DNA of 60,115 nucleotides, filler included, from Dugesia japonica (Eukaryota), in NCBI GenBank assembly GCA_001938525.1. It is 6 parts of 6 records of this genome, joined end to end, with 100 filler letters (N's around TTAATTAATTAA, not from the genome) between each part and the next. Parts side by side here need not be neighbours in the genome. Positions count along the whole stretch, not along the records: positions 51,316 to 60,115 come from MQRL01536308.1; 5 more parts are not named here. One strand, written 5' to 3'. Made by a program: the position numbers and the translations under genes. Below the pieces are notes generated by a model. The model was not told where the DNA came from. It ran no database searches and worked only from the letters and a program-made list of their open reading frames with translations. The number at the start of each line of letters is the position of its first letter. Position 1 is the first letter of the stretch. Of the stretch, positions 3,238 through 59,618 are shown in pieces.

Positions 3238-4419
3238 TTAGGTCTACAAATAAATAATCCAAATTTTTCAGCTAATTTAAAATTTTATTTAAGAAAAAGT
3301 GACACAATTTTTTAAAGTAATCACCGTTGCTATTGATAACTTAAAGCCATTTTACAGAATGCTGATAAATTCCACCATGAAAAAATTCTGGTTGTTTAGA
3401 TGCGATAAACTCAACCCCTTTTAGGATGGCATCCGCTAATTGATAGTGCATCACACAAGGCGTGCTGCATCGATATGAACAAATGATAGTCAGCTGGGGC
3501 AATAACTGATGTTCTTTGTTTTTCAAGTAATATGTGGCGTAGCGTTGTCATGCAACAATTTCATAAAACTTTTTTCTTTTCCACAAAATTGGCGTTTCAG
3601 TTCCAAATGTTGTGTCAATCGGATTAATTGGTCTTAGTAGCGATTGGCAGTTTCCCCGGGTTTCAATAGGTCATAATATGGCACACTCTTAAAATCCCAC
3701 CAAATGCAGAGCATTACCTTTCTTAAAACGATTTGGCTTTGCAATTGATCTGGATGATTCCCGGGATTTACTCATGAATTCTTACGTTTCGAATTATCAA
3801 ATCGTATCCATTTTTCGTATCTCGTCACAATTTTCCAGAAGAACGACTTTTGATACTGTCTGTTGAAAAGAGAAAGACAGAATGATTTTTGTTAGATTGT
3901 GTGAGTTCATGCAGGACCCATTTCCCTTCTTTTTGGATCTTATCCATCTAATGCAGGTAGTTAAAATAGTATGCTGAGTTACTTAAAATTGTTTTGTAAG
4001 CTGCGTGTATGTTTGTATCGAATTATCAGAAAGTAATTCTTCCAGATCTCATTACTCCATATTCTAGTAGCACTAGGACGTTATTTGTCTGCGACACTGA
4101 AATCACCGCTTTTAAATCGCCTGAACCAAAATTTGCACACATCATACAACACTACATCTTTGGCAAGAACGGAACCAATGGATTCACATTTTTCCCCTGC
4201 TGAAATTAATGCAGAATACAGTATCGAATATGCACCTTATCTGCTCCCAAATAGGGCACTGTTGGACTGAAATATTCTGACTTTTCTGCTTGATTCTTTT
4301 CTTAACTAAATGACATCTTAATATTTGATTTGAAAATTGATTATAAATCGGGTAATTAAAGCAATTGCATTACTTATACAAGATCATAAAAAATATTGAC
4401 TATTTATTTGTAGGCTTAA
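3238..4419 (-). mobile_element. Mariner (Tc1/mariner) DNA transposon, near full-length, decayed
   Basis: Imperfect TIRs TTAGGTCTACAAATAAATAATC (3238) and revcomp TTAAGCCTACAAATAAATAGTC (4419). Minus-strand motifs in order: WFRRFKSGDF, GKWVLHEL, KIVTRYEKWIRFDN, KVMLCIWWD, LLHDNATPH, KWL*VINSNGDYF. Confidence 0.9.
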
Positions 4420-4422
4420 TAT

Positions 4423-4650
4423 AAGGTTGTCCCAAAGATTACATAGTAGCTTAAAAAAAACAAAAAAGAACAAAAACATAAAGAACACTTTATTGAATTT
4501 AAAAATAATAACTACTATTCAAAGTATAGTCCATCATTATTCAGCACTTTCTATCATCGATTCGAAAGTTTCTGAATCTATTCAAAGTACCAATCTGGTT
4601 TCTTCAAATGAAAGAATTGTTGACTCGCCTCTTCATCTTCTTCAAATTAT
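4423..4650 (-). mobile_element. 3' end of a second mariner element
   Basis: TIR-like TAAGGTTGTCCCAAAG abuts the first element. The minus strand reads QFFHLKKPDWYFE*IQKLSNR**KVLNNDGLYFE*, a mariner transposase C-terminus. Confidence 0.7.
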
Positions 4651-4654
4651 TCAA

Positions 4655-6608
4655 GTCATAACGTTTCAAGAATTAATGACAAACGTATTAGGAAAATTGA
4701 GAGGAACAATGGTATACATGGATGATATATTGATATTTTCAGAAAATCTAGAGCAACACTATAGAATTTTAGACAAAGTTTTTAAAAGAATTCAAGAATC
4801 AGGATTGAAAATTAATCCGGAAAAATCTCATTTATTGCAAGTAGAAGTCAGATGTTTAGGACATGTCATAGACAAGAATGGAGTTTGAACCGATCCAACA
4901 AAAATTGAAGCGATAAAAAATTTCGGAAGACCTAAATGTGTAAAGAACTTGAGAAGCTTTTTNNNNNNNNNNNNNNNNNNNNNNNNGTTTATCAATAATT
5001 ACTCAAAGAAAGCTAGAAGCTTGGAAGAGCTATGTGGAAGTAATAATACAAAACTTGTGTGGTCAGAAAGTAGTGATAAAGCTCTTAATGAGATGAAAGA
5101 GGCATTAACAAAAGCACCGATATTGAGTTTTCTGATATCAAAAAGATGTTTGTACTAGATACAGATGCGAGCTTTGATGCCAACGGAGCAGTTTTTTGGA
5201 AACTAGATAAAAGANGTGTAGAACAAGTCATTGCATATGGGTTACATGCAATGTCAGCTCATGAAAAGGGATATTGTATAACAAGAAAAGAATTATTGGC
5301 CATTTACTATTTTTGTTACCATTTTAAACATTATCTGTATGGAAAAAGATTTTTGGCGAGAACAGATCACAAGGCGATAGCATTTATGAAAAAGACAAAC
5401 AAGCCAATTACTTCGCAATTTCAGACTTAGATGAATTATCTTAGCATCCTAGATATGGTATTAGAATTTAGACAAGGTTCAAAACATACGAATACAGATA
5501 TGGTTTCGAGAATGAATTGTGGTACGTGTGTACAATACTTAACATATCATGTGAATCCAAATGAAGGAAAAATAAAAACAAGAACAATTAATGGTATATC
5601 AGGTTTAGATACATATAAATAGTAAAGTAATGCAGAAGAATTTGAACAGATATAGAATGATATAAAAAGTGGAATATGTATAAAGTTTCGATTAATAGAA
5701 GAAATAATAAAAACAAAATACGGCAAAATATAGATCCCATCAAAAAAGAAAATTCAAATGGTAAAAGAAATCCATAAATTATTGGTGCACNCAGGCACGG
5801 AAAAAGTCATAAATTATTTGAAAAACGAATATGATGTGAAAGAGTTAAGAGAAACTGAGTCAAAAGTAATTAAAGAATGTACAGCGTGTCAAATAAACAA
5901 GGTAACAACAATTAGAACGAAGGAGGAAACTATAAAATTAAAGACTAATGAACCATTTGAGAGTATTTATATTGATATCTGTGGGCCTTTCCAAGAAACT
6001 GTAGGAAAAAAAAGAGTTATTTGTGCCATAATAGATAAATTTAGCAGATACATTTGCTTAACAGCCCTTGTTTATTAAGAAAACGATTATGGATAAATGG
6101 ATACTAAGATTTGGTGCTCCGAAGGAGGTACATGTAGATTGTGGGAAGACCTTCGAATCGAAAGCCTTCAAAAAAATGACAGATTCAATGAATATAACGA
6201 TTTTCTTCTCAAGTCCATATCATCATNNNNNNNNNNNNNNNNNNNNNNNNNNNNNNNNNNNNNNNNNNNNNNNNNNNNNNNNNAACATTAAAAGATAAAA
6301 AGAATAAAAATTGGGCAGAGTTAATAACAGAAATCGAATATACTCTAAATGCAACAAACCAGAAGACTTTGGGTATAAGTCCAGCAGAAGTGATATTTGG
6401 TAGGAGGATAGATAGAAAACGATGGTTCCATAATGGAGAAAAGAAGGAAGAATCTGAAGAGTTAACACCAACAAAGAGACATTTTCAAGTTGGATACGAG
6501 GTGCTAATCAAGTCAGAAAACAAATCTGTCGACACCGGCTGAAGAGTTCAGAAGGCAAGAGGATTGAAAGAAATGTGGAAAAAATTAAACAGATTTTAAA
6601 GAGGGGGA
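4655..6608 (+). mobile_element. Ty3/Gypsy pol remnant (RT C-part, RNase H, integrase) ending in a polypurine tract
   Basis: RT YMDD; RNase H LDTDASF..ELLAI..RTDHKA; integrase H..H..CTAC, IDICGP and VHVDCG. PPT AAAGAGGGGGA at 6598-6608 is followed by TGT at 6609 (3' LTR start; its end was not defined). Multiple stops and frameshifts. Confidence 0.9.
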
Positions 6609-8767: not shown

Positions 8768-8867
8768 NNNNNNNNNNNNNNNNNNNNNNNNNNNNNNNNN
8801 NNNNNNNNNNNTTAATTAATTAANNNNNNNNNNNNNNNNNNNNNNNNNNNNNNNNNNNNNNNNNNNN
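8768..8867. other. Artificial contig linker (N44-TTAATTAATTAA-N44)
   Basis: 100-bp spacer with stops in all six frames. Identical copies at 19088-19187, 29088-29187, 42071-42170 and 51216-51315. Confidence 0.95.
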
Positions 8868-10124
8868 ACCTCCTCCAGTGCATTAAGTAAATCCTTTACC
8901 GTCGTTCCTTTCAGTTTTAACACTCGTGGGATGTTCCACTTAGTCGCCACTGGGACTTTCTTCAAAACCTGGTCTATCGTAATGTATGCGGTTCTATCTT
9001 CATCCGGTCTCCAGGCTTTTATTGCTTTGATTGTATAATCCTCTACAGTTGTCTTTTCTAACAACTCTTTCTCATACTCAAGAATTATTGGTATCCACTT
9101 TTGATTGGTCAACGTGTCCATATGTCCTGGCTCCGCTAATTCAACTAAATGATTCATTAACTTCCAATACGTCTTTCTGGTTAATTCATATTTCAATAAT
9201 TTAGCATCCTTTATGACTGTTTCCACATAATTATACACTCTTGTTTTGTATCTAATCGGTGCTGTCTGATCTCCTTTACCACATCTGCCAGAAATCCTTG
9301 CTGTAATTTACATTTTCATTTTGGTTGTGGTTGTGGATTCCGTTCGTACTAACACCACGTACTTGTGATACTTCTTTTCAAACGATTTTACTATTTGCTC
9401 AGTTGTTCTGAAATCAAAATAATACCACAATGGTCGTTTAATGCGATGTATATCTACTAAATCTATTAACTTTATTGTTTTTTTACCTGACCAGACCCCA
9501 TATTCCGATATATGTGTTTTAGCATCGTCTTGTTCTATCACTCTGGTTCGAGAACACAAAACATNNNNNNNNNNNNNNNNNNNNNNNNNNNNNNNNNNNN
9601 NNNNNNNNNNNNNNNNNNNNNNNNNNNNNNNNNNNNNNNNNNNNNNNNNNNNNNNNNNNNNNNNNNNNNNNNNNNNNNNNNNNNNNNNNNNNNNNTAAGC
9701 ATTAATACTATAATCATCGGGTTTTGTATGACTACGAATTTCTGATTCGTATTCCTGCGCCTGAGGAAATCACACTTCACTGGTATACCTATCTAATTCA
9801 CCTGACTCTTTTAATTCCAATACATGGTTCATCATTGCCCAGTATGCTTCCCGGGAAACTACTGTCTTGAATGTTTGAATCATTGTGACTTTATCCTCCA
9901 CTTGTCTCGTTATCATTGCTCTTTTTGCTGTTAATCCTGCTGGTAGTTCTACCTCCATTGGCTGAGCTCTCATCATATTTATTCGTCCTTGATTATTATC
10001 TCGCTTTTGCATTCTCTCTCTGGCCACTTGCTGTTCTTCCAATTGTAATTGTAGATATTCTTGCTATTGTTTCAACTTGTCAAACACTCGCTGCTCTGTT
10101 TTATCTTGCCTCTATCTATCTTGT
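8868..10124 (-). pseudogene. Post-nucleocapsid polyprotein extension with a duplicated YWxxMNHxxEL domain
   Basis: ORF segments 9770..10042, 9308..9559 and 8816..9238 continue the gag strand. A 40-aa block recurs (15/40 identical, ungapped). Confidence 0.6.
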
Positions 10125-11475
10125 CTATATTGTTGCATTAGATTCACTTGATGTTGAGTTTGGTTTTGAGAGTTTTTTTATCTGGTTCCTTAATTTATCG
10201 TTTTTGTCCATCATTTTTCCAATGGCTTGATTGTTTCTCGATTTATTATTGTAATTTGTATTGGAATTGCCAAAGCCAGATCTCTGGTTATTCTGAAAAC
10301 AGTTTCTACTCGTGTGACCCGGTTTGTTGCATGTATAACACACTGGTGATTTTGTGATGAAGCAGTTTTGAGCTTTATGTCCTTGTTTCTGACAATTTGT
10401 ACATATCGTTGCTGATCTGCAATCTCTAGCATAATGACCAAGTTTACCACAGTTATAACATGTAATTCCCTGGGGTTGCTGCCACGATCCTTGTCTATTT
10501 CCTCCACTTGATCTTATATTAGTATTTGATTGTCGCGGTGCGGGTCTATTCTGACCTGGTGACAGCCCTCTCAATAATGGTTGAGTTCTGTCGGGTATAA
10601 AATCTGCAACTTTTGGTTCGCTTTTCCCTTCCTCTTTTTGCTCTTCAATTTTAAAAACACTAACTTGTTTTTTATTCATTTCCACTTTATGGGCTACCAT
10701 CGCCGCGTTTATTGCCATATCTACCGTTGTAGGTTGAGATAGATTTACCCATTTTTTCACTTCTGCATTTCTAAGTCCTTTAATAAAGATACCGAGCACT
10801 GTGGGATCATCCAACTTGTCCTTTGTTGCCAATTTGCCGAGTTTACGCAATTCTGTTGCGTATGCCTGAAAAGTTTCATCTTTTAGTTGTCTTCGCCCCA
10901 CAAACTCTTGAATTTCTTGTCCTTACAACATTAATGGCTTGAAGTTTTAAAACAACACTTTCTAAGCTTTTTCTCAGGTATTAACGGGATCTTGACGATC
11001 ATTAATTTTATCCCAATAAATAGTTTTAGCTGAATGCTTTAAATATAGAGGTAATCTATCTGCTGCTCTCTTGTCGCTCCATTGACAGGCTTGTATATGT
11101 ATCCCATATGCCGCAATAAGACTCCGAACTTGATTCCGAGTACTGGCGAATTCTACTTGACGCTCTTGTCGTAGTTATACTATCGGTAACTGATTTAGAT
11201 TCGTCTAAACTTTCTAGATCAATGTCTTCTAATCAATCGGCTCTTGAGTTGTTTGGTTCGGTTATGGTATCAAATTCTCCTGGTACGTCGTCGCTAGACG
11301 GGAATGAATTGGGTGATTTGGATGCTGAAATTGATAGAGATTGATTAAATTGTCGGGATGGCCTGTTGTAGGAGACCGATCGTTTTATTTTAGCTGAATT
11401 GGGTCGTTTACTTACAAATGACCTTCTATTTTCGGTACTTTCTCGAAAATTGTATCGGGATTCTTGATTATCTAT
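10125..11475 (-). pseudogene. gag: Gag (capsid + three CCHC zinc knuckles), decayed
   Basis: CA N-terminus QWSDKRAADRLPLYLKHSAKTIYW; MHR-like RQLKDETFQAYATEL..FIKGL; knuckles CYNCGKLGHYARDC, CTNCQKQGHKAQNC and CYTCNKPGHTSRNC. The presumed start reads ATA at 11475. Stops and frameshifts lie upstream of 10901. Confidence 0.9.
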
Positions 11476-12151: not shown

Positions 12152-12940
12152 CACGTGAGGACAATCCACCTGCCCCTGGTAGTTTATCCTCCGGATAAAC
12201 AATTTCACCAGTTTCTGGCAGTTTATACCCTTGATAAACTTTTACTGTCCATTAATAATTAATTTATCTTGCTTTACCTATACATTGGAACAATTCCGCC
12301 CGTTCCTGGCAATTTATCGCTCAAAGACAATTTTTCCCAATTGACGATTACTTCAATTCGACTCCTTTGCTCACGTTGGGACAATCCCACCTGTCCCTGG
12401 TAATTTATCCTCCGGATAAACTTTTAATGTCAATTAACACTTCTTTTGTTTCAACTCCTTTTCCACATGGAAACATTTTCGCCTGTTCCTGGCAGTTTAT
12501 ACCCCTGATAAACTTTTAATATCCCTTTACATTTGCTGCATCCTAACTTCATTTTCACGTGGGAACACTTTCGCCGGTCCCTATCAGTTTATACCCTTGA
12601 TAAACTTTCACTGCTAATCAATGATTAAACTATCTCCACTTTAAATTGTCCCTTTGTAGAACTATTTACTCAATTTCGTCACGGTTCATTTTTTTTAAAA
12701 TTATTTCAATTACCAATTTGTTAGCTATACCTTTCCTTTCACCACTTTACATTAGTACCTCTCAACATATACAATGGAACTCTTGTGCCAATTCCTGGTA
12801 AATTTCCTTGCGAAATTTGATAAGTTCAAAGCTCTCCCATAATAAATATCAATAAACTTCTCCTCAACTTATTCATTTTAACTATACACTCGGATAGTTT
12901 TCATTACTTCTCCAAATTTAACTATACACTTGGATAGTTT
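12152..12940 (-). repeat. Degenerate ~92-bp tandem array, each unit with a short stem-loop
   Basis: Units start near 12152, 12206, 12281, 12372, 12464 and 12556 (CACGTGGGAACA..CCTGG(C/T)AGTTTAT-N5-7-ATAAACT). Related hairpins at 12800-12818, 12880-12899 and 12920-12939. Confidence 0.8.
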
Positions 12941-17039: not shown

Positions 17040-17360
17040 TTATTCGGCATCCAAATCGATCGTCGACTCCGTAATTGTGCTTGTTTCCTCTGGGGATAGG
17101 TAATTGAGCCATAATGTCCGCAGTGAAACGAACATGGAACCTTCTCGATCCGCATAAGTTTTAATTATATCGGCCATTAATCGATTGGCATGCTGAAGTG
17201 ACAGTTCCTTCTTCTTGATTTGATTATATTTGGAGGTCGATTTCAAGACCTGCCCCTTCAACCTCAAGATTTCATTTTTTAACTCTCGACGCTCCTCTTT
17301 CCATCTCTGTGGAGCGGCTTCCTCTCCTCTCGACAGCTTGGTATCTTTCGATTTATTCAC
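17040..17360 (-). CDS. LTR-encoded coiled-coil protein (gene C homolog), 106 aa
   Basis: Ungapped alignment to ORFs 42767..43057 and 47283..47531 (RW, RxK, SK, E, IIxxYxDRE conserved). Begins TTATTAG|TG; AATAAA overlaps the stop. Confidence 0.7.
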   Translation of the reverse strand: MNKSKDTKLSRGEEAAPQRWKEERRELKNEILRLKGQVLKSTSKYNQIKKKELSLQHANRLMADIIKTYADREGSMFVSLRTLWLNYLSPEETSTITESTIDLDAE

Positions 17361-17616
17361 TAATAAATATCAAAATTTAACATCTGCAACACTAATACGA
17401 ATATAATAAAGTGTAAATGAACTAAAGCAATACTCAAGTAAAGGAATCCAAACTTAATTAACGTTCACCGATGGTCATAAGAATACAAGAAAAATAACTC
17501 GATGTTTGGCTTACAAAAAGAATTTAGATCTGACACTATACATTTCTATCTACTACTGCCTCTGCAGATTTCACAAATTATAACCGTTGAGTGACATACA
17601 TATCACTTGGATCTCT

Positions 17617-32379: not shown

Positions 32380-35040
32380 AACTTCTCCTCTTGCTAGAAT
32401 CAGCATCTCTTTAATCATTCGATTATTCTAAATCTGGAACCTTATGGAATTTCTAACTTAACTTAGTGAGGTGTTAGAAATTCAGTAATTTTATAAGGAC
32501 TTTCATCGAGTAAATCATTCTTCTTTCGTTTTAGAAGGTCTTTCCTTACTAGCACGACTTCACCTATTTCGAATTCGCGACTAACACAGTTATTTTCTTG
32601 ATTTATCATTGTCTGCGATGCTCGTTTAATATTATCGTAAGTTTGTTTAAAATTTCATCCTNNNNNNNNNNNNNNNNNNNNNNNNNNNNNNNNNNNNNNN
32701 NNNNNNNNNNNNNNNNNNNNNNNNNNNNNNNNNNNNNNNNNNNNNNNNNNNNNNNNNNNNNNNNNNNNNNNNNNNNNNNNNNNNNNNNNNNNNNNNNNNN
32801 NNNNNNNNNNNNNNNNNNNNNNNNNNNNNNNNNNNNNNNNNNNNNNNNNNNNATTAAGCTTATCCATTAGATTTATGTTCATATGGAAATGTAAAGATCC
32901 ATGAAATATTAAGCTTGCTAGCTAGATTTTGTAATAATTTCACTTCAAATACTTTACCACGGCCTGACACGATTTTCTGTTGTTTTCCAAATTTATAAAT
33001 CCAGTGGTTTAATACAGTGCCTTTTACAGCGGTTTCATTTTGGTTGTTGTAGCAAGATTAATCATTTTACTAAATTGATGAATGATAACAATCATATATC
33101 TTTTATTTGATCGACCAATATCCATATATGCTTTATCAATAACGATTTGTTTCACAGGATTACTAATTTTGCTATACTATATTTAAACTCAAAATCATAT
33201 TCTGCCAATTCAGTATCCAGGTTTGAAATTGTTGCGTAAACAGTTTATGTGAATGCTTAATAAATTCCAAGGCCTTGTGATCGGTTCGTGCTACAAATCT
33301 TTTCCCAAATAAATAATGACGAAAATGCCAGATGAATTCATATAACGCCAGTAATTCTTTACAAAAATAAAAATTCACTTTGATATAGTTTACATTTATT
33401 TGGATTGATTTTGAGACCAGAATTCTGGATTCTTTGAAATACATTTTCAATTATTTTATTATGTTCTGATCCACATTTTGCAAATATTAAAATGTCGTCA
33501 ATATATACAGCTACACTTTTAAATAAAATCCCATCCAAAATTGTTTGCAATAATTTCTGAAATGTAGCTGGATCAGTTGAGGACCCAAATGCATATGATT
33601 GCAGCAATATTGTCCATTCTTTTTTGAAATGCTGTTTTAATCTTATTATCTTCGTTTAATTCTACTTGATAATGAGCTTATCCCGCATCCAAAGATGAAA
33701 ATATTGTACAATTACAAAGGTGATCAAACAAAGTTTGTGGATCTGGCATCGACAATGAAAACATTTTTGTAGAATTATCCAACGTTCTAAAGTCTTGGCA
33801 CATTCTGATCGCGCAATTTTTTTTACCTACAATTATCATCGGAAAATTTCAAGCACTTCTGCATTCTTTGATGATATTGCTTTCCATCAGTTGCTCAATC
33901 AATCCATCAATCTTCTGTTCAAGATGTATTGGTTGACGTCGAGGTTGTTNNNNNNNNNNNNNNNNNNNNNNNNNNNNNNNNNNNNNNNNNNNNNNNNNNN
34001 NNNNNAAGTATCTGCTATAAATATATTTGAAAACTTTAGAAGCATTTCTTTTAAATCATTGTTCTCGGTTTAAAAACTGCTAATGCTGCCTTAAAACTAT
34101 CATTTTCAGTAAATTTGCTGTTAATGTTCTCTGAATCCAAAATATTAACGCATTTTTAATTAAATATTTAATGTATTAAACATATCAATTCCACCAATAA
34201 ATTTTGGATTTATTCCATCAACAATCACAATGTAAATAATTCTCTTCACATTTCTAAATTCTATTTTAATTTTTCCAATTTTTGAACAATTCGCTGCTTC
34301 TTTTAAAAATGCACCACTAAATTTAATATTGCATCTATCCAAGGGGAAACATCCACACTCTCTTCATAACTTTGTATGCATCCCTGATATTGAAGCACCT
34401 GTATCTCACAACATTTTGACCATTTTACTTCTAACTTTGACCATACTCCAAATTCATATATCATTCTTCTCATACATATCACAATTCCAATTTCAGTTTT
34501 TATTGTATTGACTCCACCGACGAAACTAAAACAATGGAGTCTCTTTCGTTTAAATAGCTAACATCTTTATTTCTTTCATCCACATTATCATCTTCTTCTG
34601 AAATGCATTTCACGCAATTATTGTTGTGATATATCTGATTTTTGAATAATCACTAGTTTCTTCAGCTGTGACCCATTTTACCACAAATTAGGCAACATGA
34701 TTTAAGAGGATAGTTATTACGTATGTGACCCATAAGACCACAGCAAAGACATAAGCCTTTTTTTAATTTTGTGGAGGGAGCTCTTTTGATCTATTGTACA
34801 ATTTCCTTGTAATAAACTTCATGGAAACTGTTGGCATATTTTTATATTGACATTATCTGTTGTTTTTGGAATCATTTAATTCTTCAGCAATTGGAATTAA
34901 TCTTTCAATTTCATTATTCCTGGGTTTATGATAGCTAGAACCTTTTAAATCAATTTTCTTAATTTTTGGTCTGTAACCTGCTGCTGCCACTTTTGAGTAA
35001 GTTAGCTTATTTATCCGTGACTTACCAAAAATTTCATCAG
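32380..35040 (-). mobile_element. Decayed, internally deleted Ty3/Gypsy element (NC, PR, RT, RH, IN pieces)
   Basis: Minus-strand order: CLCCGLMGH and CLICGKMGH knuckles (~34750), ML*DTGAS (~34400), VYIDD (33359..33607), ELLA..RTDHKAL (33172..33450), and a purine tract AAGAGGAGAAG near 32385. Confidence 0.85.
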
Positions 35041-35279: not shown

Positions 35280-37050
35280 TACAATGCATTGCAAGACAGA
35301 CCATGCGTTACGGTATCAATACAAGAGCATAACTTTGGATGTCTTTTAGATAGAAGAGCTGAAATTAACGTTATTAGTTTCATTTGTTTTACTAAATTAT
35401 GAGAAATACATTTAGAAATGAGCAAACAAATTTTGAGGTATGGAAACATTTGCACACTTGAAATTATTGGGAAAGTTGGAACTGGAGTGACAATTGATGA
35501 AGTTTGAAAAGAGTTTATTTTCTTAGGGCAGAAAGAGTGGCACCAGATCTGACTTGTAGAAGACTTTTTGATATCAGCTTTTATGAAATGTGTACAATAA
35601 AACTGATGAAAAAGTTGACAATTTCATTTTTAATATTGAAGCTAAATCTAGGAGACAAATTAAAAATGAGAGCAATAAATAGTCTTAAGATTAAAGACGA
35701 TCAAAGGCTAATGAAAATGGTAAAAAATATTAAAAGATATTTTCATAGCAGATAAATGAGATTTAAGACGTACAAATATAACAAAACACAAGATAGTTAC
35801 AAGTGATGAATCGTTCCACGTAAACTCATAAAAACAACCAATGAACTTAGAAGTTAAAATTGAAGAGGGCATCCAAAACATGTTTGAGAGTAATATTATC
35901 CAGAAAACGACACACTGCGGAATACTCTACTAATTTGTGTTTGGAAAAAGAACAAAAAGAACATAAATATATGCCTGAATTTCAGACAATGGAATACAGA
36001 AACAAAAAAACGCTTTTCAAATGCCTAACGTTGATTAAATACTGGTTAAATTTATAATGATTTATTAAAATATCTCAACTCGTTTAATTTGGAAAATTCT
36101 TATTATCAAGTAAAACTTGTAGAGAAATCCAAAAAAGGGTTTTCAACGAAGCACGGGAAATTTGTTTTTCATAGGAATACTATTTGGCATAATAGTAACA
36201 CCGGATGCATTTCATGAGATGATAGCAAAAGTGGTAGGCGGTTTAAATGAAAACATGGTATATCTAGATGACAGTCTCGTATTTACTAACAAAAAAGATC
36301 AATACTATAAAGTAATTAATAAAGTATTAACCGAATGATAGAATTTTGATTAAGAGCAACCCTGGAAAGTGTCAGTTTCATCAACGCAAAGTTAAAGTTT
36401 TTGGACAAATAATTAGCAGAGATGGTGCTCAAACTTATCTATCGAAAATAGAAGCAATGAGAACATTTGGCAAACCTAACTACGTCACAAAGCTACAAAG
36501 ATTCTAAGGAATTTATAATTACTATAAAAAGTAGAAAGTTTATAGAAAACTGCACCAAAAAATTAGGGATCTTAGAACAGTTGTATAGAGGATCAAATAA
36601 TGAGAAATTAGAATGCACAGATAAAATAAACTATATTTTTGAGGGTACGAAGGAAGCTTTAATTCTGCTCCAATATTATATTTCCAGATATAAAGAGAGT
36701 TTAAACTAGACATGGACTCCAATTTTGAGTCGACCGGAGTAGCACTGCCACAGAGAGATTAAGAATGAAGAGAAAAGTTATTGCCTATGATTCTCATTCA
36801 GTNNNNNNNNNNNNNNNNTTGGCTGTTTACTATTTCTGCATGCATTTCAAGCATTACTTACTCAGTAGAATATCCACTCTTAGGACACATCATAAAGCTC
36901 TTACTTTCATAATGATGACGATGATACCAATAATTTCACAATTCCAGACATGGATTAATTATCTGAATAACTTGAATATGGTCTAAGAATATTAAAAATC
37001 AATTCAACATGTGAAATTGTGTACGATATCATATGTACTTTAAAAATACC
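35280..37050 (+). mobile_element. Decayed Ty3/Gypsy pol (PR, RT, RNase H), same family as 4655-6608
   Basis: CLLDRRAEINVIS (protease-like) and MVYLDD; the RNase H tract HFKHYLL..RTHHKAL..PIISQFQTWINYL matches the one at 5146-5622. Confidence 0.8.
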
Positions 37051-42766: not shown

Positions 42767-43121
42767 TTAAGGCCATGATGTCTGAATACCCTTATCTATC
42801 ATTAAATGTTCGAGGGGCATCGCAGTTTTTACTTTCAAAATTTCCTGGACCAGTTTATTCTCACGGTCTTGGTAGGACCGAATAATCTCTGTGAAAAATT
42901 CTATTTGAGCCTTCCACACTCTCTCTTGGGTGTGAGATGCTTTGGCTTTGGATTTGAACGCCATGCACTTATTTTTGTATCGCTTCACCTTACTATTGGC
43001 GTTCGCATTATCAGCTTCCCAGCGACGTTTAGCGAGCTTGTAAACGTCACAGGTCATCTCTAAGTCCCCAATGGACTCGCGGACTCTCTTGGGGCAGCTG
43101 CGCTATAAAAGGAGGAATACA
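42767..43121 (-). CDS. LTR gene C, coiled-coil protein (main ORF 42767..43057; 5' extension frameshifted)
   Basis: 47/82 aa identical to 47283..47531 by manual count; acceptor TTCTAG|TG at 43122/43121; AATAAA just downstream. Confidence 0.75.
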
Positions 43122-47240: not shown

Positions 47241-47599
47241 TCACTGTCGTGAGGTTTGGATGCCTTTGTTGACCATCAAAGGTTAGAGGGGTATGGTCTT
47301 TCTTAGCAGCAAAATATCAGATATCAGTTTATTCTCACGGTCATGGAGGGACTGGGTGACTTCGGTGAAGGACTCAACCTGCGCTTTCCATACTCTCTCC
47401 TGCTCATTAGAGGTTTTGATCTCTTTCCGAAAATCAATATACTTTGCCTTGTATCTTTTTACCTTTGCGTCAGCATTAGCTACATCAGTCTCCCTTCTGC
47501 GTTTTGCAAGGCGATAGGGATCCCAGGTCATGTCCTGGTCCTCATTGGCCTCGCGTACTTTCTAAGTTGGAGCTGTGGAACGATTTAGAGAAGAATGCA
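47241..47599 (-). pseudogene. LTR gene C, second copy (two internal stops)
   Basis: TTACAG|TG-HSSLNRSTAPT*KVRE..MTWDPYRLAKRR..IPL*PLMVNKGIQTS. Confidence 0.75.
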
Positions 47600-49347: not shown

Positions 49348-51315
49348 TCGTTATTCCATTTTAATCAGATTGAGACTATTACTTGTTGACGGCACTCGTG
49401 TTGTTACCGATCCTGCTGGCGATGTTAAGTGTATTTAACTATGACTCGGTAGGTGTGCATCGCTATGACGCGGATGGAGAGAAAAAGTATCAACACCCCA
49501 TTTGGAGTAATGAATTTTAATATGACACATCTCTTGCTTGGAATCTATCAGTTACAAAATGAAAATCGATTTTAGACTAATTATATCTAGTGTTTAATTT
49601 CATTAATGTGGAATTTTCTTTATTAATGTTGTGATGCGGAATTAGACATTACCGAAAAAATTTCTATTGGCGTGGATGTATCATGGAATTATTAAATGGA
49701 ATTTGATATATCTGCAGTAGCATCTCTGCCTGGAACTCAGTTTTTTGCAGAATTTAATCGAATGGTTATTCATTGGTTATTACTAAATTATTATACTCAT
49801 TTCGTTATCTTTTTTCTAAAATTATTAACGGTGTAAATGTGATGGAATTTAATGTAACATACATTATTAATTTCACGATTTCTCATTTGAGCGGCTACCA
49901 ACTAATGTATCGATAAGTTGCATAAGAAATAATTTCATAAAATAAAATTTGTTTCTTTCCTATAATTGTCATTCATTAAAATTAAACATAAATTGATCTG
50001 AATTAAGGAAATATATTTATTGCATTTAAAATTCGTATCACAAAATAATTAACATCAAAATTACATTTTAAGTGTCTAGTTCAAGGTTCCTGTAACGGGA
50101 TTGTCGTAAAATTCAGCTTCTTGTTTTTCTGAATTAGCAATTTAAATTACGTTCCGCAAAAGTGTTATCGAGGTTTATTCTTGCTTTATCGATGATTATC
50201 CAACTAGTGATACGAGCTTTCCAACTTTTTAAGCTAAAATTTTCTTCCAAATTAAATTTTGTTATTTCCAGCAGTACAATGAAATTTTCTTTTTATAGAG
50301 TTTTCTGACCACGAGAATTAAATTAGTACCGTAATGGCATACCTATAATTTTTTTCTAAATTATAAGGGTTTATATACCCTTTTTCGATGCATCTCGACA
50401 CCATCGTCATTGGTTTCTATTTTTAATTTATGTTTTCTTGTTTTTATTGGTGATGGTGCCAATTCTTAGATTTTTTCTACGATTCTTTCATCTACCATTG
50501 GTGCCTATTTTTAGGGTACCATGTAGTTTTCTTGTCTTTGTCTTATTTTCTTTTTCTGGCTCCTTATTGGCCCACTCTTTAAATCCTTGTAGGGGTCTTC
50601 CTGATTGTGATAAGATTTTTTTATTGCAAAATCCTATTGCCCCTTGACATTTTCTTTCCAGATTTTCTCTTATTGATTCTTATGAGGGGAGTTATTCCCG
50701 AATAACTGATTTTGGCTTAATTTTAATTTATTTTCTCGATGAAATTAATTAATATTCCTTTATTAATTAATTATTATTTTCTTGATTATTTTTTTTTAAT
50801 AATCATAATTTTCTTAATTAATCGCGTGATTTGACCAATATTCAGTCATCTGATGCGTTCATTCTGCATTTTATCTTTTCTACTCGTCTTCCGTATTGAG
50901 GTAATTTTTTTATTGCATTTATTATGTTTAAACAAAGAATTACCAATGAAAACATGTTAATAACATAAAATAACACATTTTTAACCAATAAAATAAATAT
51001 ATACAAAGTTTACTTATCAAAACCTAGTATAAAAACGAATACGTGTAATAAACTTTCATTACTTTACTATGCAAAAACCTATTACTGTAACAAAAGATAC
51101 TGTTATGTCTATTATAGTAGATTACGGAAAACCTACTGAACTTCATGGAATACAAATGAAATTCTTTAAGAGATCAATAATTTATACGTTTCAGGTACTT
51201 TAGTTTTTTAATTTTNNNNNNNNNNNNNNNNNNNNNNNNNNNNNNNNNNNNNNNNNNNNTTAATTAATTAANNNNNNNNNNNNNNNNNNNNNNNNNNNNN
51301 NNNNNNNNNNNNNNN

Positions 51316-52750
51316 ATGTATGATATTGGCCGAGAATAAAGATTTTAACGGATTGAAAAAAGATCAAGATGAGGACGAAGAAGTGAAAAAATTCTTAGAA
51401 TATATATCTCACTTTGATTTTAGTAAAGTAGAGTGTAACAAAGCGATGAAGGAACATTGAAAGAAACGAGGCGGTAGATACACAGTGGTGAACGAATGAT
51501 TAATGATGTAGGAAGGTGATCAACTGTTATTGGTAATACCAAAATGTAGAAAAGCAAAAATACTGGAACAGTATCATAATGGAGTTCTCGGAGGTCATAT
51601 GTCAGCAAAGAAAACGGTATCAAAATTACGAGCAAAATATTATTGGCCTCATATTACAACATTTGTGAGAGAATGGATTAGTAAATGCGAAATTTGTGCG
51701 GCCAGAAAAGGAACTGGAAAGAAAATTAAAGTTCCGTTACAACCGATACCAGTGCCAGCGGCACCAATGGATATAATTGCAAAGGACATAATCGGACCAT
51801 TGCCACCAACGGACAGTGGAAAGGTATATATTTTGACAGTAGTGGATTATTTATCCAAATTTCCCGAGGCTTTTGCATTAAAAGATCAGAAAGCGTCGAC
51901 CATTGCTAGAGTATTAGTCGATAAACTATTCAGTCGATACGGCCCACCTAAAAAGATATTGACAGATCAAGGAAAGAATTTCATGAGTTAATTAATGAAA
52001 GAAGTGACTAGTTATTTTAATATTCATAAAGTGCGGACATTGGCGTATCATCCATAAACGGATAGGATGACAGAGCGATTTAATCAGACATTGACTAGAA
52101 TGTTATCGAGTTACGCGACCAGATCCCATAGAGATTGGGATAAGCATTTGAATTTATGTTTATTTGCATATAGAATGGGAGAACATCCCGCAACAAAAGC
52201 TTCACCTTTTAAACTAATGTACGGCCGAGAATGTTATATGCCAATAGATTTGGAGCATCAGCCACCGATATCGCAGTACATGGATGAGGATGATTACGTT
52301 ACCGGCATGAAAGAGATAATGCAAGAAATATGGAGATTGGCAGCATTAAATGCAAAATTTAATCAAGAGAGTTATAAGGAATTGTATGATCGAGATACAA
52401 AACCCCATATGTTCAAAAAGGGTGATATGGTATTAATTAATACACCAACAATCGAAATTAGAACCACGGAGAAATTAAAACGACCAAACAGAGGACCATA
52501 TTTAGTTTTAGAGACAACTGCAACAAATCTAAAAGTAAAGGAAGTGGGAAAACCACTTAAAAAGCCAAGTATTGTTCATGTATCGAGATGCAAACTAGCA
52601 GCAATCGAGGACGACAATGATAAAGAAAGCGATGAGGAGACTGTGGAAAGAGTGAGGCGAGTCTCAGTCAAACCAAAAATGGAGGATAAAGAGAAGGAGG
52701 TTAAACAAAAGTTGAAAAAGACAAAAAGAGTTAGTTTTAAAACGAGATAA
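51316..52750 (+). pseudogene. Ty3/Gypsy integrase (H2C2 zinc domain, DDE core, GPY/F module) with in-frame stops
   Basis: YHNGVLGGH..CEIC; KDIIGPLP..VVDYLSKF..ILTDQG..YHP*TDRMTERFN; GPYLV. Confidence 0.95.
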
Positions 52751-55700
52751 ATTGATGAGGAGAGTCGATATCCGATTAGATCCAGACAACAAATAATGAT
52801 GATGAACACGAAAACCAGCAAAACTAAAAGTAATATGGCTGAAATTCAAGAGGAGGAAAGTGTTAAACAAGAAGAGCGGTGTATATTTTGTAAGGCGACA
52901 AAACCAGATTCGGTACCATTAAACAAAGAGCTAATAGGAAAATCATGTTATCATTGCTTGTGAGGTATGTGTGATGATGTAGCAGAGTTAGTGGAGAATT
53001 TGAGTCGCGAATCTTCCCAGGAGGGAAGAGAAAAGTTTATCATGAACAAATTATCATGCGAATTATGTGGTCAGACATCAGTAAAATTACCAAGTGTCAC
53101 AAGTGAATACCAACAGTGGTGCTGAAGTTGTTTGAGCTTCGCACAAAGAATTTCTACGACAGAGATTAGGTGTATACATAAACACATGCAAGGGTTGACA
53201 GCCGCAAATCCTATTCAACAGAATATAGAACCAGCGTTGAATGAGATTGTGCAACAATATGAGGTAGATAATAATTTGGATATCTTTGAGAATGGCAGTG
53301 CCATGATGAGACAATATTACTCGTCTATAACGGAAGGAGTGACTCAAGGGAGTCGAACATGTAGTAATTCACAATGCGGACAGTCCGTCGAGAGAGGATG
53401 TCGCTTGAGTAATCTGGAAAAGCAGATATACGAGCCGTGTCTGTTGGTGATTCAAATAGTTACCAGAAAAAAGCAAGATCGGTGGATCTTAAACAGGAGC
53501 ATTAACGCTGAGAAAAACCTCAGGACTGTGGACGTCAAATCGAGTACTTTTAATTTGGAGAAGTTAGTCGTGCGATGCAAAATATGTTACAGTATCAGTC
53601 CTGTTGCAGTACCCTTGGATAAGATGCTCATGAGTAAAGCATGTTTCCAATGTTTACAATCGACTTATGACAACTTAACGTTGATGGAGAAGGGTGTCAG
53701 TCGAGAGTCAAAACGAGCGGATAGAGAGGGACGCAAGGATCCCCCATGTGAGCAGTGTAATGCAATATCGTGCAATATAAAAATAGACGCAGGACTATTC
53801 AAATAGTGGTGTAATCACTGTTTACGAAAGGTTAAAGAAATTATTAACCTTGAATTGGAGTGTGTACATGTACATAGGAGAGGATCGACAGCAGCCAACC
53901 CCATTAGGCAGTACATAGAATTAACTCATGAGGAAATTCTACAAAAATTTCAATTAAATGATCAATTAAATATTTATGAAAATAGACGAGATATGCTTAA
54001 TCAATATTATTCTTCAGTGACAGACGACTGGAAGAAAGGGAATCGAAAATGCGACAATCCGAGATGCGGAAGATATAACCTCAAAGGATTTATTCCCCAA
54101 AGCGGATGGAGACCATTATGCCAACCATGTCTGAGCGGTGTTCAGATAGTTACGACGAAGAATCAGGAGTATTGGATCTACAAGAATCAGCCGACATTTA
54201 AGGAAAACGACGAGATCGAACCAACAGTATGCGATAAATGTAGAGCATGGAGGCCTACCAGATGCCTAATCATTGTGACGGATATCATGAAGTTATGTAA
54301 ACAATGTTACCAAAGTGCGAAAAGTAGTGTTAAACGATCATTATTACAAGTCAAACGCAGAGGCCAATAGTTATTGGAAACGGGAGTGTGAGATAGTGCA
54401 GGTTGTGTCAGTTGTGTGAATGAAAAAGTCCAAGTGAAGTTGCCAGTACTGGAAACGGTATACAAAGAATTGTGTTTGGAATGCGCAATCGATATGCGTG
54501 GTCAATTGCAAGATGCAAAAAATGTGTTACATGGGGCCAAAAAACAGTTAAAGCTAAGCCAAACCACGCCAGTTAAAGGAGAACCTTTGACATCAATAGT
54601 ACGGAAGGAACGGTGGAGTGGGACTAAGAGTCAGATGCGAGGGATCGACGAGGACGTCGATTTTTTAAACAGGGGGAGTGATTGGTCTGAATTGTTGTTC
54701 AATGAGCGAATACGACGAATACACGAAGAATTAATTGATAAAAAACAAATAATGAAAGAGATGAGAGAGAGCAATAGTACATACTATGCTTTAAAGAAAC
54801 AGAACTTCCAATTAACGATATCAGAGGAGGATAAACGAACAATAAAAAATACGTGGGAAGCCTACAGCAAGCGCCAAGAAGAATACGAAGGACAAATAAA
54901 TAAAGAGGAATATAAAGCAGCGCAAGCCAAGCGGATGGCAGAGACGCAACAATTTATAAAAGAAAATGAAGGGCGAGGAAACCCTGATGTGGAACAATTA
55001 AAAAATGCGGTACAGTGGGTACAAACATTCGAACAAGTGGTGGAGAAATTAGAAAAAGATAAACAAGAGATTCAACAAAAAGCGGAGAAGCAACAAGAAN
55101 NNNNNNNNNNNNNNNNNNNNNNNNNNNNNNNNNNNNNNNNNNNNNNNNNGGAGAAATTAGAAAAAGATAAACAAGAGATTCAACAAAAAGCGGAGAAGCA
55201 ACAAGAAACGTTGGAGAGATTAAATAAAAAGAAAGCCCAAATGATAGAATCTCGTTCATGTCTGACGCAGAAACTAAATGTAATACAGAAAAACAACAAT
55301 GAACTGAAAAATTGGCCTAGTACATCGAACAAAAGTGAAAATCGTAGAAAGAGGGATAGAAAGAATAAAAATAAAAAATGGCAAGTTCGAAGCGCTACTA
55401 TGGAAATTGTGTATTCTTATTCAGATAACGATAATAGTGAAAAGGGTCACGATGCGCCAGAGGAAGTAATAAAAAGTGAATTTAGTGGACAACCGCCGCC
55501 GGCGGATGATGATGAGTCAACCAACTTCAGTAAATTAAAGGACGATTTATGGCACCAGTTGTTGACAAAGCGAGTAAAGTGCGAAGCAGAGAATAGTCAG
55601 AGAATCAAAACGGAAGGGGACGAAATATTTACTGCAGAAGCAATAGAAATGATACGAGCACACCAGGTAGGTGAAGAGGACATGCCAGCAGCAGTACTAG

Positions 55701-56962
55701 GAAAAGTTGAAGCTTATGGAGAAAGGTGTTACCAAAGATGGGTCCAAGAAAACAAGGAGGAGAGGAAGTCCAAAGGGCCGTTAGTAAATAAAGAGGAACA
55801 AAAATTTAAAGAAAAAGGAAAACCTGAAGAACCAGAACATAAAAATGAGACGAAGCCCGAAAAACAACCAATGGCGGAAGCGGAGCGAAAATTAAAGGAG
55901 GAAAACAAGGGAATAGAAACTGCAATACTATTAACGGTAGAAACAGTATTATGTCGTAAAAAGGATTTACCGAAAGATGAAGAGTTGGAGATGCAAGCAT
56001 ATTATCAATGTATAAGACGCAAATGGTGCGCTGATCGGCCAGGAGAAAAGGTCCCCACCATAAGAGATGGAGATAAGATGACGAGATGCCCGACAGATCA
56101 AGAATTTCATGTGTATCATGAACAGGAATATAAAAGAGAGTATGGTGAGTTACACAGCAAACTAGAGGAATATTTAAAAATTGAGGAATCGTACAACGNN
56201 NNNNNNNNNNNNNNNNNNNNNNNNNNNNNNNNNNNNNNNNNNNNNNNNAAAAGAGAGTATGGTGAGTTACACAGCAAACTAGAGGAATATTTAAAAATTG
56301 AGGAATCGTACAACGGAAAATCGCTTACCAAACAAGAGTGCGAAGAACGATTAAGAAGAAGTGAAGATATGGTTATCGAGTATCAGAGAAAAGCAGAAAT
56401 CTATCCACATCCAATGTTATTAGAGGAAAGTAAAGCGATGGAAAAATTATACCGTAAAGCACTAGACCGGAGAGCAAAACAAGAACAAAAACGGGATTTG
56501 AGCAAGCACCAAGGTCAAGTGGAGATGTTGAAAAGAGTACGGAGCAAACAAGTGGAAAAAAGGGATGGATTCATGAAACCAGAAACGGAAACGAAAACGT
56601 TAAAGGAAGCAGAAACGTTGAACTTTTGTGGGATTCTTGAGAGAGACACAAAAGATAATGAACAAGTCGAGGACAAGATAGTAGTAATTGGAATGATAGA
56701 CCTCAAGGGTAATGTCCTGTTTGAGATGCCTTTTACACCTGAGCTAATGGAAGAGATAAGAGCAGCTCAAGATAAACAAAAAACGCAGAAGTTTGAACCG
56801 GTAAGGTACGAGTGTGTGCTGAAAAGTAACGGGCAAGTAATAGAACAAGAAATTAACTTAATAAAGGATTAAGCAACAATTAAAGAACCGAGTCCAGGAA
56901 CTCCATTACCAGAACTACCCACGGTTGAAAATGATACGTCAGAAGGAAATTATGTATACGCG
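52751..56962 (+). pseudogene. In-frame post-integrase extension: ~2.5 tandem Cys-rich modules, then a long charged/coiled-coil region
   Basis: ORFs 51530, 52067, 53132, 53855, 54416 and 56963 all lie in one frame, separated only by isolated stops. TAANPI..QYYSS..C....CG..PCL..QIVT..WI recurs about 240 codons apart. Confidence 0.8.
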
Positions 56963-58935
56963 ATGACTAAATCCGAATCACAGGATCACATTTACGAAAA
57001 TGAGTCGGGAGATCTAAAGGTGGAAACAAAGCCGTCCGTTCTAAGAAATTTTCGGAAGACAATGTGGGCATGCTTAGCATTGATACCGGTGTCAATAGTT
57101 ATTTTTTTATTAGTAACGCTAACGGCGGTAGCATGGCCAACAACGGTACAAATGACAAATTTGTATGAGTTTAACGAGTCAACCACGATGTCTAGTGGGG
57201 CAAATAGACAAACCAAGCTAATGAGTAAATGGATATATGTCCTAATGGCGTTGGTTGCATACGAAGTGATAGGACTGGAGCGAGATTGGCCAACCAGACC
57301 AACCATTGTCGTAAGTCAGACGACTAATGATAATCGGAAACTGTTAATGATAATAACAGTAATAATGGCGTTAGCATTTGCAGTGACAATCGTAATCTTA
57401 GTAATGACAGTGAATAGACAAGCGCAACTACAGCTTGAATTTCAGCCTGACTTCGAGATTCAGAGGAACGGGAGCCCATTAACAATTCAATGGAACAAGT
57501 GGATGTATATAGTATTATTACTAATTGGGTTCAAAGTGTTAAGTGGAGAAGAGTGTACTGATTATGAGGATATTCATACGGAACATCGAATCTATATGAC
57601 TTACTATAAAACTTGGGAAACACACGACCTCTAGAATCATTGATAAAAACAAAACATCAATCGATTAAAGTGGATCTCTATAGATTCGCTTGGTCGCTAG
57701 ATATCAAGATCAAAGGTAGTAAGAAAGAGCAAGTTCGAATTGTCCTATACAACCATGAAACGTGGGGTGTTGTGGGGGATGAAGACATAATTCTTGCCTA
57801 CAACCAGAACTCGGGATTGTTCGAAGCCAACAGAGAGTGTAGTTTTTATTACTACCACTATATTCAGGTATTCTATTCTACGCGTGCCTGGTATGAGCCA
57901 GTTTGGCTCAGCTTCCGAGACAAATGTCGGAAGAAACAAGCGGGGTATATCTCGCAAGTCTGGAGAATTGAACCACGAGGAGTAACGGGAATTCAATGGA
58001 ATTAGTTTCCATTAGGTATTTGGAGACAGCATGCCGTCTTCCGAAGAGGAGAGTGGCCTATGATCGACGTGAAAATGAGTATAGTAGATAAAGAGAATCC
58101 AAGGACACCCCAAGATGCAGAAGTTACGTTCCAAGTAGCGCGTAGAAAATAATGGTTGTTTCGGATTAAGCAATATCGATCTTTAACATATTGGACGCAA
58201 GACGGGATGTTACAAGAGTATAAATGGAAACGTAATCAAAGCGAAATGATAATGAAACTTAATCGAAAAAATGGAGAGTGGTTAGAATTAGAATATATAT
58301 TAATTGACGAGGCATCCCAGGACAACAAGGCATTAACTGCCAAACCGACGACGAAAGGGAGGACAAAAACAAAAACTTCCTTAAAAACAACAGCGGCTAG
58401 GTCATCAACTGAGAGGTCGACAACCAGGGTGTATCCAAAGACGACAACGCCGGCGACAAAAACTATCATGAAGAGAAACACGAGAGAAACCAGTGTACGA
58501 AGCAAAAGGAGAAACCATGCGATAACGAGGTATGTGAAGACGATAACTGATAGTGAATCAACAAAGAAGCCATCGAATATTTTAAATAAACAACATTTTA
58601 ATGAAAAATTAATGAAAGAGTTGGTAAGGACCGGTTCACGAAGGACATTTCCGGCAAAGGCTAGGTTGAAGCATGAGGCANNNNNNNNNNNNNNNNNNNN
58701 NNNNNNNNNNNNNNNNNNNNNNNNNNNNNNNNNNNNNNNNNNNGCGGGCGTCATTACGATAATCATGATGACGATTATAACGATATTAATTTGTAAAGCG
58801 AAAAGAGGGCAGTATCCTAGACTGCGTTTAGAACCAGAATTAAGAGAGTTGACAGCGAAATATTTCCACCCGCTAAGAGTGTTGGTGTGGTCGAGAGTTC
58901 CTGAGGGAGGAACTGAGTCGTTGTGGAGTTATTGA
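56963..58935 (+). pseudogene. Membrane-protein end of the polyprotein: TM/signal repeats and Env-like type I membrane protein
   Basis: Four hydrophobic segments in 56963..57634, a frameshift near 57620, an aromatic-rich ectodomain, a Thr-rich stalk, RSKRR, TM AGVITIIMMTIITILIC and tail KAKRGQYPRL. Confidence 0.65.
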
Positions 58936-59123: not shown

Positions 59124-59618
59124 ATGAGGGGACGGTTAACAGTAAACGTGGATCTAGACGACGTCGACAGAGCAATTACGGAAGAACCAGCACAAACGTA
59201 TACCCAACTGCTTAATCAACCTTTAAACCCTTATTTTACAATGGAAAACTTGTGGGACGAACACTGCCGGAGTGTAATGAGAAATTCAGATGTACTAAAC
59301 GAACAATTACAACAGACACGACAATTAAATGCAACCCTTGTAGAGAATCAAAATTTTCATGTGATGCAGATACACTGATTGAATAAAATATTGGAGAACC
59401 AGAGACGACAGATTACCGAGAATCAGAATTTTTACCTACAAACCTTGAGCGGAACTAACAAAATTTTAGAAGATCTGAGACACCAAGGGGAGGAGTTACA
59501 AGCCTATAATGCAGAGCTTATCCTATCCCAAATTAACCGATTACCAAGCGTATCTACAATCCTGAACACTATCGAGACTAGTGAGAGGATGTGGTATGGA
59601 GAAGAGAGTAACGTATGA
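59124..59618 (+). pseudogene. Separate ~164-codon coiled-coil accessory ORF downstream of the polyprotein (one internal TGA)
   Basis: ORFs 59124..59378 and 59379..59618 are contiguous and in frame; internal repeat ENQNF......NKILE. Confidence 0.6.

Follow-up and report, generated by a model that had tools for sequence, protein, structure and literature searches.

Post-integrase membrane module of a Dugesia japonica Ty3/gypsy element, most likely a second surface glycoprotein rather than an Env

The membrane block at positions 57074 to 58935 of the window (the whole 60,115-nt stretch of Dugesia japonica DNA analyzed here, filler included) closes the polyprotein of a Ty3/gypsy element that is decayed and present in high copy number. 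It occupies a slot after the integrase, laid out as an internal signal-like segment, a small ectodomain, a stalk, one anchor, and a short tail, and this layout characterizes a whole integrase clade. A preliminary description had called the protein Env-like on account of its position, a furin site, and a YxxL motif; this is not supported, as the fusogen of the clade sits between gag and protease and the motifs are at chance level. Because the three relatives readable that far upstream carry a class III fusogen in that position, the window protein is most probably not an Env but a second surface glycoprotein with no role in fusion. The same description had also proposed a non-canonical surface protein processed from the polyprotein, unlike F-type Env, and this is supported; the protein is a fixed part of the element and not a host fragment of a single copy.

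The window is AT-rich with many N runs (GC 0.18 to 0.39), and the 3' half of the element spans from the N gap at 51216-51315, where its 5' part is cut off, to the window end; no LTR pair is found within the window, from which the element's 5' half is absent. All features of the element are on the plus strand. The pol end (51320-52750) codes for a Ty3/gypsy integrase with H2C2, core, and C-terminal modules, recognized by Pfam and tblastn and interrupted by two in-frame stops. The Pfam matches within 51512-52750 are to Integrase_H2C2 (E = 2e-18) and rve (E = 1e-10), and tblastn between the window and its relatives matches from 51326 onward. These relatives come from an integrase search (59 proteins, P series) and a metagenome scan (39 loci, L series); assignment to Ty3/gypsy is based on the H2C2 and core domains of the integrase and on the PR-RT-RH-IN order in the relatives. 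The pol frame continues for ~1,600 codons beyond the integrase before a frame change at 57610-57634, with nine stops in ~2,000 readable codons compared to 19 to 69 per segment in the other frames. A giant single polyprotein with extra domains is thus seen in the window, as it is in the three loci that reach far upstream (L001, L002, and L003), which are single frames of 3,184 to 3,703 aa.

Two extra regions lie in the pol frame between the integrase and the membrane block. The first (52751-54391) is Cys rich, with two ~205-aa tandem units and a partial third (self-match E = 5e-46), 11 CxxC pairs, and several stops; it matches no Pfam family and nothing in the 39 relative loci, and by its sequence pattern the tandem units are a candidate new zinc-binding accessory domain. 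The second (54392-56872) is long, charged, and coiled-coil-like, with 826 open codons across two assembly gaps. We note that exact 58- and 67-nt repeats flank 50-N gaps at 55042-55207 and 56132-56315; they look like unmerged contig overlaps, and the scaffold gap lengths, including that of 58681-58743, are therefore unreliable. Downstream of the polyprotein is an accessory coiled-coil ORF (59124-59600) that is part of the element, with one stop and a V-SNARE_C match below cut-off (E = 2e-4); many copies cover this interval. One or two accessory frames are also located 3' of the polyprotein in L001 to L004 and L006 to L009, and these are DEDD exonuclease-like (e.g., L001 12169-13470, Pfam RNase_T, E = 9e-4) and recall the exonuclease ORF3s of rotifer elements.

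Elsewhere in the window there are short coiled-coil frames on the minus strand at 47283-47561, 42767-43102, and 17040-17369; the first two form a related pair (DNA 69% identical across 153 nt) and resemble by eye the accessory frames 3' of the L001 and L002 polyproteins. Other, more distant retroelement fragments are present at 4400-6540 (+), 8816-11120 (-), 32860-33950 (-), and 35730-36510 (+), consisting of reverse transcriptase, RNase H, and integrase pieces and a gag with three zinc knuckles. A 266-aa open frame at 2017-2817 (-) codes for PH (E = 4e-7) and SH2 (E = 5e-4) domains and is an adaptor-like, apparently intronless host gene, and 12198-12635 has about four diverged repeats at ~92-nt spacing in strongly negative GC skew.

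The element is present in many copies. Contigs of two DNA runs (12,260 and 4,239 placed, mostly 90 to 99% alike) cover all 30 bins from the integrase to the window end. None of the contigs over position 58003 (31 and 6 in the two runs, respectively) carries the stop found there in the window, as judged from the 40 listed of 1,169 contig differences. No indel is seen at the frame change at 57610-57634 among the 12 of 16 indels listed; one deep contig spans 57609-57902 without a gap. The preliminary description allowed that the region might be a host gene fragment in this copy only, and the deep multi-copy coverage of the whole block rules this out. Either such a capture by the window copy or a chance reading of decayed DNA is very improbable as an account of the block; the lack of any homologue found and the broken frame speak for it, but it fails against the coverage, the 2 stops in this frame compared to 30 to 40 in the others, and the same layout throughout the clade. 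It is likely instead that a host gene fragment was captured anciently by the family, and this is part of the explanation we favor. Matching RNA reads are few, with 11 of 10.5 million and 274 of 13.6 million in two runs, mostly <90% alike and, in the larger run, in both mate directions. RNA depth is lower over the ectodomain than on either side, and the reads are mostly from diverged copies; no RNA-supported splice joint is seen among the 15 of 83 joints listed, with reads that are very sparse.

The surface protein has all of the parts that had been described for it, although its reading frame is not intact, being broken by the frame change between 57610 and 57634, by stops at 58003 and 58150, and by an N gap (58681-58743) that lies directly before the TM and includes the anchor start. 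We see by eye no in-register slippery heptamer at the frame change. From ectodomain to tail the frame has 2 stops in 420 codons, with 40 and 30 in the other two frames, and this decay equals that of the integrase (2 stops in 412 codons). The anticipated ~250-aa aromatic-rich ectodomain is present as an orphan beta-rich domain of ~245 aa (57551-58341), probably two beta-sandwich domains, with 14% F+W+Y, two Cys, and one sequon; relatives carry two to nine sequons, and the two halves of the domain do not match each other in self-comparison. The Thr-rich stalk was also correctly recognized (58342-58680; 112 aa, S+T 29%), but it is Lys/Arg rich as well (K+R 27%), and the A-rich strand here (42% A) inflates the K, R, and T content. 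The TM helix and tail reported after the stalk are confirmed: the anchor (58744-58794) is followed by a Cys and a basic cluster, with the C terminus inside, and the 46-aa cytoplasmic tail (58795-58935) ends at the polyprotein stop at 58933-58935.

The short motifs are a different matter. RSKRR is indeed located in the stalk (58498-58512), but it is ~78 residues before the TM rather than near the membrane, and R-x-K/R-R sites turn up by shuffling the stalk in 34% of cases but exist in just 1 of the 13 relatives with fully open modules. Similarly, YPRL (58813-58824) is the one YxxL in the tail, and a YxxPhi motif arises in 55% of tail shuffles and is present in 6 of the 13. Both are at chance level and neither carries weight. 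The absence of a fusion peptide after RSKRR, as originally reported, is borne out by the lack of a hydropathy peak between this motif and the anchor. The tails of 3 of the 13 relatives have PPxY, a budding and sorting motif.

Four hydrophobic segments precede the ectodomain at 57074-57550, where a duplicated anchor/signal pair had been proposed. Segment 1 (57074-57136) is a full TM-type helix with a basic N-flank (4 K/R) and an A-x-A end, and is signal-anchor or signal-like; segment 3 (57341-57406) is the strongest TM-type helix. Segment 2 (57227-57280) is short and marginal and is a probable duplicate of segment 4 (57497-57550), which is internal signal-peptide-like with an acidic C-flank. 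On a hydrophobicity scale with an ad hoc weighting, segments 1 and 3 reach the level of full TM helices, and segments 2 and 4 that of short signal-like cores, with scores within the range of the relatives' signal-like segments. The duplication itself is above chance in shuffles of units that were picked after inspection, with only 8 to 9 of 2000 block shuffles reaching the observed score for the segment pairs, and 0 of 5000 motif shuffles doing so for two short motifs of the units.

The proposed release by repeated TM plus signal units is particular to this family, the 13 open relatives having one signal-like segment ahead of the ectodomain. Two literal anchor plus signal pairs amount to four crossings from a cytosolic Pol, which would leave the ectodomain in the cytosol. 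Given the single segment of the relatives, one or three of the four window segments must cross. Segment 4 has the position of the relatives' single signal-like segment, and we infer that it is likely the release point of the surface protein. Hydropathy and charge fit a type I layout at segment 4 and at the anchor, whereas the four segments pose a parity problem; all four have basic N-flanks, in conflict with any simple alternating topology, and both sequon-bearing short loops would be luminal in a four-pass reading. It is unlikely that all four segments cross, with the beta domain and basic stalk cytosolic and the block acting as a membrane tether or scaffold of the polyprotein. The even number of segments, the sequons in loops 1 and 3, the few sequons and Cys in the domain, and the 27% K+R of the stalk are as expected for a tether, but segments 2 and 4 are marginal, the Cys and basic cluster follow the last TM, and the strand composition accounts for inflated K, R, and T. 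Moreover, the single signal-like segment in the 13 open relatives gives odd parity, and their ectodomains bear sequons.

The comparison with relatives places this anatomy in a fixed position. In each of the four closest proteins (44 to 48% integrase identity), the open frame goes on past the integrase through a signal-like segment, ectodomain, and Thr-rich stalk to a single anchor and a tail, and the surface module is thus present in 4/4 of these versus 1/55 of the others (P0051, with a signal-like segment plus anchor); two of the other 55 have a lone hydrophobic stretch. Among the 39 loci, 14 have at least 44% identity, two of which end inside the integrase, and all 12 that pass the integrase end have a signal-like segment and ectodomain in the same slot. 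The whole module is open in nine (L001 to L009), giving 13 fully open modules together with the four proteins; L010 has the module but changes frame immediately past the signal, and in L014 and L029 the signal and ectodomain are present but the sequence is broken or cut off ahead of the anchor. None of the nine more distant loci examined has the module. In an integrase tree of 48 rows (including 29 of the 55 distant proteins and four distant loci, with a midpoint root and some long outgroup branches), the window groups with 14 relatives in a clade supported at 100/100, within which it is sister to all other members (100/97). The integrase profile has no match in viral contigs. Additional domains are inserted between integrase and surface module in some loci, with extra aspartyl-protease-like domains in L006, L008, and L009, and, in L008 and L009, ankyrin repeats immediately ahead of the module. 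We note that P0051 is a tardigrade Pol outside the clade; the 1,360 aa beyond its integrase include a domain of ~500 aa with a signal-like segment before it and an anchor after it, and this region has no Pfam fusogen match.

The slot is constant and its content is not, with at least four ectodomain types that do not match each other. Type 1, the commonest, is a ~95-aa repeat in P0004, P0005, P0007, L001, L002, L007, L008, and L009, and fits L005 weakly. A profile of 11 type 1 repeats matches fibronectin (E = 3e-4), and 33 of its 37 PDB matches are to named surface proteins that bear FN3 domains. Type 2 is a ~180-aa beta-rich unit in L003, L004, L010, L014, and L029, and type 3 a ~100-aa Cys-rich domain in P0006 and L006; neither has a significant PDB match. 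The P0004 ectodomain has no usable ESM Atlas match. L002 has a second module of signal, FN3, and anchor at ~4750-5320, upstream of RT and after two protease-like stretches.

Type 4 is the orphan window domain. No homologues of it are found by word search of longer proteins or by HMMER against 1.84 billion representatives, and there is no match in PDB sequences, Pfam, metagenome contigs, or viral contigs; as it matches no relative either, homology with the clade covers the layout only. Assignment to the FN3 type was tried and rejected (hhalign 0.2% and 0.1%; 201 of 500 shuffles score as well), and a by-eye likeness to the L003/L004/L010 unit failed profile tests. The suggested AlphaFold and Foldseek comparison yields an all-beta domain with jelly-roll-type matches, none of which is significant. 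AF2 models of the ectodomain, made on single sequences with no alignment, have no long helix and low confidence (pLDDT 36 and 44), so that all fold matches are leads only. The best matches of the first domain are to a carbohydrate-binding module (Z 6.5 to 6.8, rmsd ~3, 92 to 95 residues aligned), tied with unrelated sandwiches and none significant; at Z 6.8 the rmsd is 2.9 over 95 residues. With the low-confidence model, Foldseek ranks the GnT-IV C-terminal domain first and C1s CUB chains 2, 3, 7, and 13, all with E >0.09; CUB chains are not in the best 50 of either VIA list, and there is no Pfam CUB match. The domain also bears a by-eye likeness to CUB, and a CUB or lectin jelly-roll type is no more than a lead.

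The clade's fusogen is seen in the upstream parts of the relatives. A Monjiviricetes-type class III fusion glycoprotein is encoded ahead of the protease in 3/3 relatives readable upstream (PF24664; E = 1e-79 in L001, 3e-94 in L002, and 6e-84 in L003). L001 and L003 start with gag, and L001 has a ubiquitin-like domain ahead of the fusogen. The P0007 frame begins before its proteases and has no fusogen in it. L001, L002, and L003 hold the fusogen upstream and the module after the integrase, and the post-integrase protein therefore coexists with a true fusogen. The relatives' fusogens as queries have no match in the window, from which the 5' half of the element is absent; by extension from the relatives, the window element presumably has a class III fusogen of its own. 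The window domain does not resemble either class of Env. At 245 aa and two Cys it lacks the ~500-aa Cys-bridged ectodomain of class III Env (PF24664), and there is neither a furin site with a hydrophobic fusion peptide nor, in Pfam or among PDB sequences, any homology to gypsy Env or baculovirus F. It is improbable that the window family uses the protein as its own Env, a new fusogen type that replaced the class III protein. The classical env position after pol and the furin-like motif would suit this, as would the placement of the window family as sister to the rest of the clade with its 5' half unseen. However, the protein matches neither F nor class III fusogens, lacks any hydrophobic stretch from 57610 up to the anchor, and is modeled as all-beta with no long helix, in addition to having a furin motif at chance; furthermore, the relatives hold the slot module and a separate fusogen at once.

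We return to the second surface glycoprotein. There is an even chance, in our estimation, that it is the last product of a Burro-like giant polyprotein, a type I glycoprotein that signal peptidase releases and that partners the class III fusogen in attachment. Segment 4, as internal signal, would thread the C-terminal part of the polyprotein into the ER, and signal peptidase would free the surface protein from Pol without the element's protease. The protein would then reach the surface of the cell and the envelope of particles. There, its host-like beta-sandwich domains may bind a cell-surface ligand and make it the attachment or tropism partner of the fusogen, with the ectodomain as a swappable cassette. 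Since the signal region is duplicated in the window family, an odd number of the four segments would cross the membrane, for example with segment 1 going in, 3 out, and 4 in, and segment 2 left out. We infer cleavage, surface display, binding, and the fusogen partnership alike.

Two-component entry is familiar from paramyxoviruses, with F and H/HN/G, and from herpesviruses, with gB and gD. A conserved fusogen accompanied by a distinct surface protein that varies and stands on a Ser/Thr-rich stalk would be an analogous arrangement, although the likeness comes with no sequence or fold link to the window protein. It is less likely than not, but conceivable, that entry in this lineage of giant LTR retrotransposons has two components as in free viruses, a conserved class III fusogen and a separate attachment protein cut from the polyprotein end, in which swappable captured host adhesion folds (FN3, jelly-roll/CUB-like, and others) set the cell type entered, such as stem or germ cells. 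The work on gB-type elements (PMC13524379) mentions gD/gH/gL, and their entry mechanism is stated there to be unknown.

Rather doubtful is that the same surface protein is a host modulator of the producing cell instead of a particle attachment protein, either mimicking host adhesion and immune receptors or serving as a decoy for them, or as a superinfection receptor blocker. The ectodomains are host-like (FN3) with free turnover, L008 and L009 have ankyrins directly before the module, and a class III fusogen such as rhabdovirus G is able to both bind and fuse on its own. A host-modulating role would also agree with other host-manipulating domains of Burro-like elements, which are described as carrying BIR, BCL2-like, and ankyrin domains (PMC6431247). 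Cotranslation with Gag and Pol, in contrast, suits a particle component, as do the PPxY motifs in 3 of the 13 tails.

The element type and the presence of TM ORFs after pol (in rotifers; PMC5408684) are already known. Planarian Burro elements have one giant polyprotein with a GAG-ENV-POL layout and extra domains (PMC6431247), and Burro/GYPSM1 shares with the relatives here gag, a ubiquitin-like domain, an in-frame mononegavirus-type fusogen, protease, RT, RNase H, integrase, and ankyrins. In contrast, the available text of that source describes neither a module of signal, ectodomain, and anchor after the integrase nor FN3 repeats, and what follows the integrase in the window is a set of Cys-rich repeats and a coiled coil, with no Pfam BIR, BCL2, or ankyrin. 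The likeness to Burro rests on the described layout, and the clade in the 48-row tree contains no named Burro1-4 or Smed errantivirus. Platyhelminth GAG-ENV-POL errantiviruses have an HSV/gB-type env between gag and pol (PMC13524379), which is where the fusogen is in the relatives here, and the Smed_errantivirus_1 env in the accompanying supplement resembles the L001 to L003 fusogens by eye; no second membrane protein is described in the accessible portion of that work.

The F-type Env of insect errantiviruses (gypsy) shares with the window protein its post-pol position, signal, ectodomain, and anchor. The window protein differs in having no conserved furin site with fusion peptide and no helical stalk, in its much smaller ectodomain, and in being cut from the polyprotein, whereas F-type Env is a separate spliced ORF. 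Post-pol membrane proteins without Env homology are also seen in rotifer TM ORF3s (PMC5408684) and in Drosophila env-less LTR elements (bioRxiv 10.1101/2025.03.14.642691), but as these sources present them, they are separate, short, and in elements with no canonical fusogen; the window clade has a folded ectodomain in frame with Pol, plus a fusogen. The rotifer study also cautions against calling an ORF env solely on the strength of TM, sequon, and RxxR motifs. We found no description in the literature of a clade-wide post-integrase surface module with exchangeable ectodomains, although primary Burro papers or errantivirus supplements may contain one.

Labeling any post-pol membrane ORF as "env" can be wrong even where a true fusogen sits elsewhere in the element. 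Release by signal peptidase would let a retroelement append surface modules to Pol. A second surface protein with a fixed position and a variable fold is a candidate for the unexplained cell choice and entry of gB-type errantiviruses, or, alternatively, is a candidate new class of host-surface modulators, and RNAi in planarians would make the role of this surface protein testable.
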